From Candidatus Fimimonas sp. (GTDB taxonomy: Bacteria; Bacillota; Clostridia; Christensenellales; CAG-314): a stretch of 53,209 bases of DNA. Within the stretch, counting starts at the first letter, position 1. The number at the start of each line of letters is the position of its first letter. The position numbers were made by a program, and so were the translations under genes. The DNA is taken from positions 1-53,209 of the forward strand of contig JAZRHU010000037.1 of the NCBI GenBank assembly GCA_045644945.1. Reading direction: 5' to 3'. Shown piece after piece: positions 8,383-12,339 of this stretch. The notes below the pieces were generated by a model that made no database searches, was not told the DNA's origin, and saw nothing but the letters and a program-made list of their open reading frames with translations.

Positions 8383-9402
8383 ATGAAAATAGTATTTTGT
8401 GGTGGCGGGACGGCAGGTCACGTAACGCCCAACTTTGCATTGATGGAAAAACTACACGGCAACGAGATGCACTACATTGGCACAAATGGTATGGAAAAAC
8501 GCTTGGTTGCGCCCTACGTAAACAACGGCACAATCAAAGGATACCACCAAATTACCGCAGGTAAACTAAAACGAAAGTTGGCACTATCCAACCTTTTGTT
8601 GCCATTTACCTTGGCAAAAAGCATACGTCAAGCCAAACGACACCTAAAAAGGCTTGCGCCAGACGTTGTGTTTAGCAAAGGCGGATTTGTTGGTTTGCCT
8701 GTCGTTATAGCCTCAAAACAACTAAAAATCCCCACCATTGTGCACGAAAGTGACATGTCACTTGGCCTTGCAAACAAAATTTCCAGTTGGTACGCAACAA
8801 AACTACTAACAACTTTTCCTTGTAGCAAAAAGGGAGAGGCTTTTGGAGCAATCGTAAGAGAGTCAATTCTTCAAGGAAACAGACAAAAAGGCATCGAAAC
8901 AATGGGCTTTGACGGCAAAAAGCCAATTTTGCTTGTTATGGGTGGAAGCCTTGGCGCAGGCGCATTGAATGATGCCATTTGCAACAATGCACAACTTGCA
9001 AGCACCTTTGATATTTTTGTTATCACAGGTAAAGGCAAGCAAATTGATTGCAACTTTGTGCGTCAGATGGAGTTTGTATCTAATATTGCAGACATTCTGG
9101 CAGCAGTTGACATTTGTTTAACACGTGCAGGAAGCAATAGTTTGGTAGAACTAACCCTTGCCAATGTGCCATTTGTAGCTGTGCCACTAACAAAAGGCTC
9201 ACGTGGAGAGCAGGTAAAAAATGCCAAATGGTTTACCAACAAGGGTTGCGGAGTGTATCTTGATGAAGCAAAGCTAACCAACCTTGCAACCACACTACTG
9301 ACGTTACACCACAACCGCAACGCCATTGTTGCCAAACAAAAACAATGTGAATATCTCAACGGCACCGATAAAGTTGTGGAAGAAATACTAAAATATAAAT
9401 AA
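8383..9402 (+). CDS. murG: Lipid II GlcNAc transferase MurG
   Basis: GGGTAGHV, SKGGFV, HESD..GLAN, GGSLGA, RAGSNS, EQ..NA. Confidence 0.92.
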   Translation: MKIVFCGGGTAGHVTPNFALMEKLHGNEMHYIGTNGMEKRLVAPYVNNGTIKGYHQITAGKLKRKLALSNLLLPFTLAKSIRQAKRHLKRLAPDVVFSKGGFVGLPVVIASKQLKIPTIVHESDMSLGLANKISSWYATKLLTTFPCSKKGEAFGAIVRESILQGNRQKGIETMGFDGKKPILLVMGGSLGAGALNDAICNNAQLASTFDIFVITGKGKQIDCNFVRQMEFVSNIADILAAVDICLTRAGSNSLVELTLANVPFVAVPLTKGSRGEQVKNAKWFTNKGCGVYLDEAKLTNLATTLLTLHHNRNAIVAKQKQCEYLNGTDKVVEEILKYK

Positions 9403-9403
9403 A

Positions 9404-9437
9404 AAAAACGCCCTACGTTTGTTTACGGGGCGTTTTT
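9404..9437. terminator. Bidirectional intrinsic terminator
   Basis: AAAAACGCCCT...GGGGCGTTTTT between convergent murG and NUDIX gene. Confidence 0.75.
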
Positions 9438-9452
9438 CGATATTCAAATTTA

Positions 9453-9878
9453 CTATTCAATCTCTTTAACAATTGCCTTGACATTATCGTAACTGCATTT
9501 TTGTAAAAATTCCGATATTTCCATCCATTGAACGGATATCATGCGTTTTTCTTTGGCAATTGGTTGACCTTCGCTTTCAACTTCGAACAAAAATGGCGCA
9601 ATTGTCTTTTGCACAAGTTTGTTAGATGGCGTGGAAAATTGATAAGAATACGGCGTCAATGCCTTGACCATGTTTTCCTCTGTCAAAACAATGTTTGTCT
9701 CTTCAAAACACTCCCTAATGGCCGTTTGAAGGAGTGTTTCGCCCTGCTCGTTGTGACCTTTGGGCAAAGATAACACGTTTCTTCCATAGATATCTTCCAC
9801 CGTGGCAAGAATTTTGCCCTTGCAAAGCACCACAGCCATGGCGCTTTGCTCAATGCTATCGAATTGTTCGTTTTCCAT
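9453..9878 (-). CDS. NUDIX hydrolase
   Basis: Nudix box LPKGHNEQGETLLQTAIRECFEETNI; AAGGAG RBS. Confidence 0.9.
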   Translation of the reverse strand: MENEQFDSIEQSAMAVVLCKGKILATVEDIYGRNVLSLPKGHNEQGETLLQTAIRECFEETNIVLTEENMVKALTPYSYQFSTPSNKLVQKTIAPFLFEVESEGQPIAKEKRMISVQWMEISEFLQKCSYDNVKAIVKEIE

Positions 9879-9928
9879 TAAGGCTCTCCTTTTATGCGAT
9901 ATTGCATTCCATAATCATAAAAAAATTA

Positions 9929-10849
9929 TCAATCGTCGCCGTAGTTATGATCCATAACCAATTGGCATCTTTCTACCAGGTCTTGACGTAGTCGCAATGG
10001 TTTTTCCACGCGCACACCAAGGCCCAATGAAAGAATTTTGCTAATAAGCAGTTCATCGTAGGGCAAGGTTGCTTTGGCAATGTAGGTATCGCCAAGGCGA
10101 GCAACGCTATTAACACCCAACCACTCCTCACAGGCGGAAAGCGCCGATGGGTGCACAGACAAAATTACTTCGCACATTTCTTTGTCCTTCAAAATGTCCG
10201 TTTGAATTACGCTTGGATCAGCATGGTACTCACGGCCAACAAAGTGGTCGCCAAGCGTCATTTTGACAATACGCGCCACCTTGAAATATCTAAAGCCCCT
10301 GCGCAAACGGCAAAAACAGTACACGTACCAAGCGCCATCTTTCAAAATAAGACAGTATGGCTCAACCATACGCACGGTGTTTACGCCATCCTTGGAGTGG
10401 TACTCAATTTCGCAAAGCACCTTTTGCGCAATACAATCGGAAAGTTGCGGAATAAGATCGCGTACAGAGTAGTCTACACTGTCCACCATAAACTGGTCTG
10501 TTCTAAGCACGTTGGCACCTGTGTGAGAACGCTTGAGGCCTTGCAACTTTTGTATTGCTTGCTTGGTTACTTCGTCTTGAAGAGTGGAACTTTGCAAGCA
10601 GAAGATAACCCTTTCGTACTCGTCTTCGGTAAAATAGGTAGCTTTCAGTTTGTAGGTATCAATGATACCCCATCCGCCATTGCGACCAAAGGAAGACATG
10701 ATTGGTATGCCACCCTCGGAAAGAGTTGCAACATAGCGATAGACGGTGCGTTTGGAAATTTCGAATTTTTCCGCAAGTTCGTTTGCGGTTACAAGCTTGT
10801 CTGTTGACAAAAGTGTTGATAAAATACCTACCAAAACTGGGATTTGCAT
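9929..10849 (-). CDS. YafY-family HTH-WYL-WCX transcriptional regulator
   Basis: TANELAEKFEISKRTVYRYV HTH, GRNGGW, RMVEPYCL...WYVYCFC..R..FRYFKVARI WYL domain; ATG 10849 with GAAAGGAG RBS. Confidence 0.93.
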   Translation of the reverse strand: MQIPVLVGILSTLLSTDKLVTANELAEKFEISKRTVYRYVATLSEGGIPIMSSFGRNGGWGIIDTYKLKATYFTEDEYERVIFCLQSSTLQDEVTKQAIQKLQGLKRSHTGANVLRTDQFMVDSVDYSVRDLIPQLSDCIAQKVLCEIEYHSKDGVNTVRMVEPYCLILKDGAWYVYCFCRLRRGFRYFKVARIVKMTLGDHFVGREYHADPSVIQTDILKDKEMCEVILSVHPSALSACEEWLGVNSVARLGDTYIAKATLPYDELLISKILSLGLGVRVEKPLRLRQDLVERCQLVMDHNYGDD

Positions 10850-10903
10850 GGCGTTACTCCTTTCGATGTTTTGACAACATTTTCGTTGTGTGACTATATT
10901 ATA

Positions 10904-10932
10904 ATTATAAAATGCTGACAGCATATTGTCAA
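10904..10932 (-). promoter_or_regulatory. SigA promoter of WYL gene with overlapping operator TGACA-N6-TGTCA (10916-10931)
   Basis: Perfect TTGACA-17-TATAAT; the palindrome covers -35 and spacer. Confidence 0.8.
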
Positions 10933-10968
10933 GGTTTTGCAAAAATAATTCAAAATATTTTTTAATGT

Positions 10969-11001
10969 TGCCATATATATGGCATAGTTATTTGGTAAAA
11001 T
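10969..11001 (+). promoter_or_regulatory. Operator TGCCA-N6-TGGCA plus extended -10 promoter of the 55-aa gene
   Basis: Perfect 16-bp palindrome TGCCATATATATGGCA (10969-10984) over the -35 position; TGgTAAAAT at 10993-11001. Confidence 0.7.
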
Positions 11002-11036
11002 GTAGACATCAAAAACATCAAAGGGAGGCATACCAA

Positions 11037-11204
11037 ATGAAATACGATTGCACAACTGAATTTGACCTTGACATCATCTACCAAAAACTTACAGCGCCAA
11101 GCGCAACACAAATGGTAAAGGCATGCAACTTTTTTGAGCAAGAGGATATGCTTACCATGTTTCAACATCGCCTCGAACGCGAAGCACAACTACTAACCGC
11201 ATAA
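11037..11204 (+). CDS. Small hypothetical protein (55 aa), divergent from WYL regulator
   Basis: GGGAGG RBS 8 nt before ATG; own promoter and terminator; MKYDCTTEFDLDIIYQKL... Confidence 0.75.
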   Translation: MKYDCTTEFDLDIIYQKLTAPSATQMVKACNFFEQEDMLTMFQHRLEREAQLLTA

Positions 11205-11205
11205 C

Positions 11206-11239
11206 AAAAAGCGTACTCAAATTGGGTACGCTTTTTTTT
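11206..11239. terminator. Bidirectional intrinsic terminator
   Basis: AAAAAGCGTACTCAA-a-TTGGGTACGCTTTTTTTT. Confidence 0.85.
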
Positions 11240-11259
11240 GTTTGGATTTTTTGCAATAG

Positions 11260-12339
11260 CTACTTTTTGTTGATTGCACCATTTAGCACCGAAGAAGGGT
11301 AACTTCGGACAAGTTTGCAATCCTGTTGAAAGTCGGCAATAGCCTGCTCAACAAGCAATTTACCAAATTGCGCTTGAGTGTAGATATTGCTCCAAAGGCC
11401 GTAAGCAAGAGAACCGGGGATTGAGTTGATTTCGTTGACATAGATTTTGCCACAGTTTTTGTCTACCAAGTAGTCCACGCGAATCACACCACTAAATCCC
11501 AATTTTTGGTAGATTTGCTGTGTCATTTGTTTTACGGCATTTTGCACATCTAAGTCAATATCCAACGTTGGCTTACACCACTTGCTTTGAGATATGTACT
11601 TATCGTCAAATGTAAGCAAATCGTGGGTGGTTATGGGCATGTCAACATCACTTGTTTGCACCATGTTATTTGCACACATTGCAGAACAATTTACTTCGTA
11701 AAAATTGGTTAGTGCTCTTTCGCAAAGCACATCATTGTCGTAGCAAAATGCCACTTGTAGCGCGTGTTTTAGTTCAACCTTGTTATGGCAAAGGGTTATG
11801 CCTATGCTAGAGCCAAGCTTGTTGGGCTTTACAATAACTGGATAGCCAAGGTTTCCTGTTGAGTAGATGTTCTTCTCAAACTGTTTGCGCGTGATGCGAC
11901 GCCCCATCACTGTGGGCATACCAATTGCTCGCAAGGCATGTTTTGTGGCAATTTTGTCCATTGCAATGGCGCTGGAAAGTAAGCTTGAGCCAATAAGTGG
12001 AATGCCTGTCATTTGGCAAATAGCAGATACTGTGCCATCCTCGCCACAAACACCATGGCAACAATTGACAGCAACATCAATATCGATATACTTTTTGACG
12101 CGCTTGCCTTTGCAAATTGCAATGCGCCTTTCTCCAAAGCAGAAGGAAATTTGCTCGTGAAATGTGTAATTTGTGTGCTTTGAGGGCGTAAAATCGTTTG
12201 GAACGGCAAAGCATCTGTTTTGCTTGTCGAAATACGCACCGATAATATTTCCCCTAAAATACCCCTTTACTAAGCAGGCAGTGATGATGGAAATGTCGTG
12301 CTCGCAACTTTGCCCGCCGTAGATAATCAATATGTTCAT
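11260..12339 (-). CDS. ddl: D-alanine--D-alanine ligase family protein
   Basis: YGGQSCEHDIS, HG..GEDG, MDKIATK, PVIVKP..LGSSIG, TFDDKY, RVDY, NEINSIPGS. Confidence 0.88.
   Translation of the reverse strand: MNILIIYGGQSCEHDISIITACLVKGYFRGNIIGAYFDKQNRCFAVPNDFTPSKHTNYTFHEQISFCFGERRIAICKGKRVKKYIDIDVAVNCCHGVCGEDGTVSAICQMTGIPLIGSSLLSSAIAMDKIATKHALRAIGMPTVMGRRITRKQFEKNIYSTGNLGYPVIVKPNKLGSSIGITLCHNKVELKHALQVAFCYDNDVLCERALTNFYEVNCSAMCANNMVQTSDVDMPITTHDLLTFDDKYISQSKWCKPTLDIDLDVQNAVKQMTQQIYQKLGFSGVIRVDYLVDKNCGKIYVNEINSIPGSLAYGLWSNIYTQAQFGKLLVEQAIADFQQDCKLVRSYPSSVLNGAINKK

Follow-up and report, generated by a model that had tools for sequence, protein, structure and literature searches.

Gene arrangement at the locus

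The subject of this study is a divergent gene pair in a 53,209-nucleotide stretch of Candidatus Fimimonas sp. (contig JAZRHU010000037.1; in the following, the window), which belongs to a 1.45-Mb assembly (G000) with 43% G+C. [quoted passage not shown] It lies on the minus strand at 9929–10849, has 306 codons plus stop and starts with an ATG at 10849, with AAGGAG upstream. The other gene is an open reading frame (ORF) for a probably soluble protein of 55 amino acids without an assigned family, located on the plus strand at 11037–11204 behind a GGGAGG ribosome-binding site (11023–11028). It is followed on the same strand by an intrinsic terminator (11206–11236), in which a 14-pair stem precedes a T run. 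The 187 bp between the two genes carry two 16-bp palindromes, termed box 1 and box 2. The genes, boxes and promoters that a first-pass annotation had proposed were all found in place, with the gene starts corrected by 1–2 nucleotides (nt).

Conservation of the gene pair

For comparison, 20 loci were used, our own and 19 that were fetched from relatives. The record titles of the relatives name metagenome-assembled genomes of uncultured Clostridia or Oscillospiraceae from ruminant guts. In all 20 loci the small ORF was divergent from the WYL gene, and wherever the locus extended far enough the pair was located between murG and ddl. When the single sequence was used as query, the small ORF turned up in 34 of the 36 other genus genomes searched, and 24 genomes from other families of the order gave no match. 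A profile of the 20 orthologues detected it in all but one of the other genomes of the genus (44 of 45), and within the family 4 of 18 genera had a match. One genome that the single-sequence search had missed (G012) contains a diverged small ORF with both boxes. The ratio of non-synonymous to synonymous substitutions (dN/dS) was 0.12–0.21 among the four closest orthologues (five computable pairs of six), so that the ORF is a protein-coding gene under purifying selection. In genome G029, the one exception in the genus, the small ORF is gone and the WYL gene, in the same murG–ddl slot, is cut to about 85–108 N-terminal codons (L119, contig C83). The expectation that homologues of the 55-residue ORF would stay divergent from WYL genes with boxes was borne out. 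We conclude that, as judged from the aligned loci, the two genes are a conserved unit of divergent orientation and that both its operators are conserved.

Two palindromes at two kinds of promoter

Box 1 (TGACA-N6-TGTCA, TGACAGCATATTGTCA) is located at 10916–10931 and was present in 20 of 20 loci. It overlaps the promoter of the WYL gene on the minus strand (10904–10932), which consists of TTGACA (10932–10927), a spacer of 17 nt and TATAAT (10909–10904) and matches the consensus in 12 of 12 positions. Within this promoter box 1 spans −34 to −19, with its right half serving as the −35 hexamer. The TTGACA was found in every locus, the 17-nt spacer in 19 of 20, and the −10 had at least 5 of 6 matches in all of them. 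The layout of an autorepressed gene that had been proposed for box 1 was therefore seen throughout the loci.

Box 2 (TGCCA-N6-TGGCA, TGCCATATATATGGCA) at 10969–10984 is the candidate operator of the small gene. Downstream of it on the plus strand lies the extended −10 element TGgTAAAAT (10993–11001, with TG at 10993–10994 and TAAAAT at 10996–11001). When a −35 element was sought at 16–18 nt from this −10, the best match in the window was 3 of 6, and in none of the 20 loci was it better. Box 2 spans about −39 to −24, and its proximal G(T/G)C is at about −27 to −25. The distance from the end of the box to the −10 hexamer was 11 nt in 10 loci and 12 nt in the other 10. The earlier statement that box 2 lies at a promoter with only an extended −10 could be upheld, and the geometry is that of known WYL activators. 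Two position classes were observed: one box lies over the consensus −35 of the WYL gene, whereas boxes at −35-less promoters lie 5–6 bp further upstream. Transcripts would be expected to begin near 11008 on the plus strand and near 10897 on the minus strand.

Both boxes fit the strict pattern TGNCA-N6-TGNCA in 18 of the 20 loci. The remaining two have one mismatch in box 2 at the same distance, so that the twin palindromes described at first in one genome are conserved among the relatives. In the window the boxes are 53 bp apart from start to start, or about five helical turns, and are separated by an A/T-rich spacer (10932–10968). The spacing was 53 bp in 7 and 54 bp in 11 of the strict loci, and it was constant although the rest of the intergenic region ranges from 146 to 752 bp. 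Two loci carry inserts of about 500–600 bp. One insert, in L007, separates the small-gene promoter from the ORF and lengthens the leader to about 490 nt. The other, in L012, falls between box 1 and the WYL start and contains repeated words similar to GCGCATTA. The box pair with its 54-bp spacing is intact in both.

The window contains TGMCA-N6-TGKCA 4 times where 0.47 would be expected, and none of 100 shuffles reached 4. Genome-wide it occurred 21 times against 5.3 in block shuffles, with most sites inside ORFs. In the window, box 2 may form a small hairpin that was flagged as terminator-like by a terminator scan. In many relatives box 2 has no self-complementarity, as in TGACATATAGTTGGCA.

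A single box in distant orthologues

Of 151 genomes of the order, 57 gave a match to the profile of the WYL protein. At the loci of orthologues with about 35% identity, a single TGACA-N5/6-TGTCA box is located between back-to-back promoters. This box provides the −35 of the WYL gene, and the −10 of the divergent gene is 11–12 nt away from it. These single-box loci in distant orthologues identify the twin-box layout as a derived form of a one-box switch. In a sister genus the divergent partner is a homologue of the microprotein. The partners found elsewhere are unrelated proteins of 58, 69 and roughly 100 amino acids, none of which has a Pfam family. A HIRAN-like domain had been guessed for the partners of about 100 amino acids in another family (L029–L031) and was rejected, as Pfam gave no match at E up to 1. 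In other genera and families (L027, L028, L040, L041), WYL orthologues with 35–41% identity still adjoin murG, so that the position by the cell-wall genes is old; the genes are convergent there and not co-transcribed.

A second target with a LexA operator

The genome was scanned with a matrix from the boxes of the relatives and then with a cassette pattern consisting of the box, 11–12 nt and TAnnnT. Outside long ORFs, the genome-wide scan returned two palindromic cassettes without mismatch. One is the small-gene promoter and the other lies on a different contig (C43:21156–21216). Here the box TGACAGGCAGTTGGCA is followed after 12 nt by TGcTAAAAT and about 12 nt further by AGAACAAATGTTCG, which has the pattern GAAC-N4-GTTC. 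This is the LexA operator of Bacillus and clostridia (PMC4234289). LexA is encoded in the genome, and the promoter of lexA itself bears a similar box, as does that of dinB.

The gene downstream of the second cassette (C43:21599–22069; loci L058, L071) encodes a protein of 156 amino acids with weak, sub-threshold matches to sigma-70 region 4. Relatives of this protein carry PF08281, and two of them are named 'sigma-70 family RNA polymerase sigma factor' by NCBI. This sigma-like gene was found in all but one of 41 genomes of the genus. In the 30 loci compared, its promoter has the LexA box throughout; the strict WYL box is present in 26, at a constant 12 nt from the −10. Among the other four, three have a WYL box with one mismatch and one locus is cut off. 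In the genome that has lost the small ORF (G029), the sigma-like gene still has its WYL and LexA boxes (L078). The cassette pattern matched 70 times in 41 genomes, typically twice in each, compared with 9 matches of the reversed control. In three other genera a box and a −10, without a LexA box, precede genes with similarity to sigma region 4.

The regulator had at first been thought to control one microprotein. This has to be revised, since the sigma-like gene is a second conserved target. Because a LexA box accompanies the cassette at this second target, a tie of the WYL regulon to DNA damage is indicated by the promoter sequences, in agreement with the suggestion of a DNA-damage module.

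Several further sites were recorded. The only other strict TGACA-N6-TGTCA palindrome (C73:22226–22241) is located between plsX and a GNAT–dinB pair. It was rejected as a regulon site because it is kept upstream of plsX in only 1 of 24 genomes and its distance to the −10 is wrong, and it thus served as a negative control. In this region (C73:22226–22241 and C73:23620–24920; L059, L122), dinB itself has a good LexA box 15 nt ahead of its start. A box with one mismatch, TGACAAAATTTTGTCT, followed after 12 nt by TAAAAT, is located outside long ORFs at C22:22082 on the minus strand. High-scoring matrix matches also occurred inside ORFs (C42:1422, C67:17400 and others).

Extra copies of the cassette were observed in some relatives. 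Those in three genomes (L100–L104; G014 contigs C21, C37 and C39, G010 C93, G008 C31) have LexA boxes and precede phage-like genes, whose products start with an N-terminal domain of the type 'F.SYW.AI..LD...IKPQIDAN'. Five extra copies are identical in G014. Another copy (L105, G024 C87) has no LexA box and precedes a large serine recombinase. This suggests that mobile elements have borrowed the WYL cassette of the host. In a sister genus, genome G161 has a box and a −10 ahead of two further genes (L107 on C2 and L114 on C23). By reading of the sequence, the product of one gene combines a MerR-type HTH with a Dam-like DNA methylase motif in a fusion; the other gene encodes a protein of 388 amino acids without assigned function.

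Features of the WYL protein

The WYL protein contains an HTH_11 domain at residues 9–59 (E 2.1e-13, 50.4 bits, cut-off 25) and a WYL domain at residues 133–198 (E 2.4e-17, 63.1 bits, cut-off 21.8). The WCX domain at residues 226–296 (E 9.3e-5) scored 23.1 bits, just below its cut-off of 23.9. It is encoded by the sole WYL gene of the genome, with a single PF13280 match, and PADLOC matched only generic WYL models at the locus. In 17 loci the orthologues were 64–97% identical, and W174-Y175-V176, R187, F189 and K190 were invariant.

When the structure model was compared with solved structures by Foldseek, PafBC (9fnd, E 1.5e-13) and DriD (8tp8, E 2.6e-11) were the top matches, ahead of BrxR and CapW. 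The alignments cover 320–340 columns of full-length PafBC and DriD, from a model that is itself poor, and the identity to DriD is only 12–13%. An ungapped alignment of the WYL core sets R187-x-F189-K190 beside R-x-F-R in PafB and PafBC, R-x-F-V in BrxR and R-x-F-S in CapW. K190 is thus a lysine in place of the second arginine of R-x-[FW]-R. In DriD, the residues R204, W206 and R207, together with Y192, contact single-stranded DNA (ssDNA; PMC9186387). By motif alignment, Y175, R187, F189 and K190 would be the counterparts of these residues, and ssDNA binding is predicted.

The 55-residue protein

The small protein has a conserved N-terminal part of 35 residues (MKYDCxxEFDLxxIYxKLT...VKAxxFF) and a variable C-terminus. 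Its invariant residues are M1, K17, L18, V27, F32 and F33. No family match was obtained in Pfam, NCBIfam, PHROGs or PADLOC, a search of the ESM Atlas gave no usable match, and Foldseek of the model against the PDB returned 0 matches. Among 1.84 billion representative proteins, the profile of the protein detected 60 relatives, of which all but one are 42–104 amino acids long.

The AlphaFold2 model (mean predicted local distance difference test score, pLDDT, 81; predicted template modelling score, pTM, 0.32) has helices at residues 11–19, 29–32 and 38–54. It shows no confident compact fold, and the protein looks like a peptide that may fold on a partner. No long hydrophobic stretch was seen by direct reading of the sequence. 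A sliding-clamp-binding motif was considered and rejected, as there was by eye no canonical motif of the QL[SD]LF type. The conserved VKAxxFF fits no motif that we recognised. A complex prediction with residues 1–325 of FtsZ gave no answer (score 0.00), which is evidence neither way. Our best guess is that the protein may be a damage or stress effector, because in the comparable systems DriD drives didA and DdaA drives aciT.

Neighbouring genes and further features

In the window, the WYL gene has as neighbours murG, a NUDIX hydrolase gene, the microprotein gene, ddl and murF. The NUDIX gene (9453–9878, minus strand, 141 amino acids; Pfam NUDIX E 4.1e-15) follows the WYL gene on the same strand after a gap of 50 nt. 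Between the end of the WYL gene (9929) and the NUDIX gene (9878) no terminator-like site was found. The proposal that the NUDIX gene stands behind the regulator in one transcript can be retained for this species, where it is probably co-transcribed. It does not extend to the relatives: the NUDIX gene adjoins the WYL gene in just 2 of 20 loci (L001, L002), so that it is, from its distribution, to be seen as a lineage-specific add-on outside the conserved module.

Within the WYL leader lies a further plus-strand promoter (10871–10900, TTGACA-18-TATATT, 11 of 12 matches) of doubtful significance. It points to the small gene, and its transcripts would cross both boxes. It was recognisable only in the closest relatives (L002, L004) and absent where the WYL leader is short. 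An Rfam search of 9300–11400 gave no match above the gathering score.

Mechanism and alternative explanations

The reading that we favour, with a probability of roughly 55%, is autorepression combined with ligand-dependent activation by the WYL protein. The operators, their geometry and the members of the regulon were obtained by comparison of the genomes. The WYL protein would be a sensor-regulator that forms homodimers and recognises in these operators a 16-bp palindrome of the TGACA-N6-TGTCA type, with inverted GAC/GTC triplets. At its own promoter, where the box covers a perfect −35, binding would shut the gene off. At the small gene, the box would stand in for the missing −35, 11–12 nt ahead of the extended −10, and the same cassette together with a LexA operator would drive the sigma-like gene on the other contig. 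Both sites would be activator sites of the kind used by DriD, DdaA, SiwR and PafBC. The ligand of the WYL domain would most likely be ssDNA made after damage, and the liganded dimer would help RNA polymerase to start at promoters that it uses poorly alone. As output, the 55-residue protein would be switched on, and the sigma-like factor once LexA is also gone.

The activator part of this reading is favoured because the geometry from box to −10 matches the sites of PafBC, SiwR and DriD. This layout is present in 20 of 20 small-gene loci, which are −35-less with the box at 11–12 nt, and in 26 of 26 sigma-like loci at 12 nt. Several observations weigh against the reading. In 16 of 20 loci (script count) a TG stands ahead of the small-gene −10, and the same is true of nearly all sigma-like promoters. 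Extended −10 promoters can fire without a −35, and for this reason a protein bound over −39 to −24 might just as well repress, in the manner of CapW at its bidirectional promoter. The unliganded dimer would then block polymerase at both boxes and at the sigma-like promoter, and the ligand would derepress all of them together, with LexA cleavage in addition for the sigma-like gene. The boxes do overlap core promoter regions. CapW offers a precedent with one palindrome in a bidirectional promoter from which it is released by ssDNA (PMC11662680). In a profile search of solved structures, PafBC (E 8.6e-9) and the repressor BrxR (7qfz, E 2e-8) matched with similar strength. A repressor, however, needs no fixed distance to the −10, yet 11–12 nt is kept in several genera and ahead of two genes that are unrelated. 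A −35 has evolved at neither target promoter, whereas the adjacent WYL promoter keeps a perfect one, and the gene is adjoined by murG, NUDIX and ddl instead of a defence system. Foldseek puts activators first, from a WYL model with pLDDT 67 and pTM 0.35, and the residue contrast between activators and repressors comes from two repressor sequences, so the evidence from the protein for the activator type is weaker than the promoter geometry. A repressor of the CapW and BrxR type is the main rival, less likely than the activator. A search of sequencing runs returned no RNA run with the locus, and the shares of the DNA runs were all at most 0.10. Whether activator or repressor, a DNA-damage context for the WYL protein is indicated by the LexA box that the shared cassette carries.

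The signal itself could be another one, with the same operators and regulon. A different nucleotide or metabolite would then be sensed, and the LexA box would be an independent input. The Firmicute WYL factor MbpR of Lactiplantibacillus senses cyclic di-GMP (c-di-GMP) and not ssDNA (PMC11880434), and in this species a gene for a hydrolase of nucleotide diphosphates, the NUDIX gene, follows the WYL gene. Upstream of recA there is a LexA-like box and no WYL box, and no repair genes were found among the WYL-box sites of the genome-wide scans. These points count against ssDNA as the signal, and a master role over repair genes like that of DriD or PafBC was not seen. Conversely, all 30 sigma-like promoters join a LexA box with a WYL box in its strict, one-mismatch or cut-off form. 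The extra cassettes ahead of phage-like genes fit damage induction, the counterparts of the ssDNA-contacting residues of DriD are invariant, and the NUDIX gene is confined to 2 of 20 loci. We regard a non-damage signal as quite unlikely. Much less probable still is that the palindromes are bound by another factor, or are mere promoter or structural elements, and that the WYL gene is only adjacent. The link between box and WYL protein is a prediction, and box 2 of the window can form a terminator-like hairpin. But the box accompanies WYL orthologues even in other families of the order, where identity is only about 35%, and box 2 is not self-complementary in many relatives. Its GAC/GTC half-sites match those of DriD and PafBC, and the small ORF was lost together with the intact WYL gene in G029, where the latter is truncated.

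Taking the favoured reading of autorepression and ligand-dependent activation further, one may picture a two-input damage circuit in Oscillospiraceae, although we consider this extended scheme rather doubtful. A WYL sensor of ssDNA would activate −35-less promoters, and LexA would gate one of them. The sigma-like factor would start a second wave, and the 55-residue protein would be a new cytoplasmic checkpoint effector. Phage-like elements would have copied the cassette to time their induction. If this is true, the effector might, for example, halt division or wall synthesis; its gene lies in the murG–ddl cluster.

Comparison with known systems

Caulobacter, Acinetobacter and mycobacteria are the groups in which WYL regulators of the DNA-damage response have been characterised. 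For Firmicutes, no characterised WYL damage regulator was found in the literature searched, supplements not covered and papers available in part; the one Firmicute example met there, MbpR, senses c-di-GMP. The WYL switch itself is of a known kind. New are the Firmicute setting and the duplicated operator with its strict five-turn spacing. Also new would be the very small regulon, which comprises the regulator itself, the microprotein and the sigma-like factor, as would the promoter that joins WYL and LexA control and a cassette that appears to have been copied by phage-like genes. The locus offers a compact, testable case in gut Clostridia, with one regulator, three promoters and a clear operator geometry. 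We flag the conserved microprotein family without known relatives as its main output. If the microprotein proves to be a damage effector, it adds to the small, fast-evolving checkpoint proteins.

The closest parallel is DriD with didA in Caulobacter crescentus, and with it DdaA with aciT in Acinetobacter. DriD drives didA and DdaA drives aciT, both genes for lineage-specific division inhibitors (PMC9186387, PMC13004042, PMC13010146). Shared features are a wHTH-WYL-WCX factor of the homodimer type and an inverted GAC/GTC palindrome. DriD sites occupy the place of a missing −35, with an unvarying distance to the −10 (PMC13004042), as do the boxes at the two targets here, and the predicted target is likewise a small lineage-specific protein. 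As in those systems, a box at the regulator's own gene suggests negative autoregulation. The boxes differ, with GAC-N8-GTC here and CGAC-N7-GTCG quoted for DriD (PMC13010146). The regulons of DriD, DdaA and PafBC include recA or repair genes, whereas here no box is found at recA. Unlike in the DriD system, LexA is present and shares one target promoter, and the host is a Firmicute. Unlike DidA, the microprotein has on reading no membrane segment, and it has no similarity to anything known.

SiwR of Mycobacterium smegmatis is a homodimer that is divergent from its target and binds an imperfect palindrome with an essential −26 region (PMC10693628). It resembles the WYL protein, as proposed here, in being a homodimeric activator that is divergent from its genes, and it binds between −35 and −10 without ligand (PMC10693628). 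Its regulon is also without recA and repair genes. It differs in that its targets are DinB/YfiT-like enzymes and in that it has one operator against two here, and the available part of the report describes no second target shared with LexA.

The best Foldseek and profile match of the WYL protein is PafBC. The PafBC motif tGTCgg(N10)tA(N3)T is contacted at −28 to −23 and includes a −26 element, without a −35 (PMC8635444). In this hybrid promoter the GTC is at about −27 to −25, which is the position of the G(T/G)C in box 2. PafBC works as a heterodimer or as a fusion, and its half-site is non-palindromic, in contrast to the single chain of 306 amino acids and the full palindrome found here. PafBC also shows no DNA binding without RNA polymerase and controls about 150 genes (PMC13004042), against the very small regulon of this locus.

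CapW and BrxR have the same domain order and, as cited above for CapW, a palindromic operator in a bidirectional promoter. Box 1 overlaps the WYL −35, and in the distant orthologues a single box serves both promoters. They differ in that no CBASS, BREX or other defence genes are adjacent here and in that the position of K190 is a valine or serine in the two solved repressors that were aligned.

Division inhibitors of the DidA, AciT, SulA and YneA type differ between lineages, and several of them are membrane-anchored. The microprotein may be like them: it is a small lineage-specific protein whose control by the WYL factor is predicted from the operators, and the gene divergent from the regulator is not the same one in all families of the order. 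For the sigma-like target, the comparable case is SigN (ZpdN) of the Bacillus subtilis plasmid pBS32, whose gene is repressed by LexA and induced by damage (PMC6751061). Compared by description only, SigN differs in that the available part of that paper outlines no WYL input and in that the gene studied here is chromosomal.

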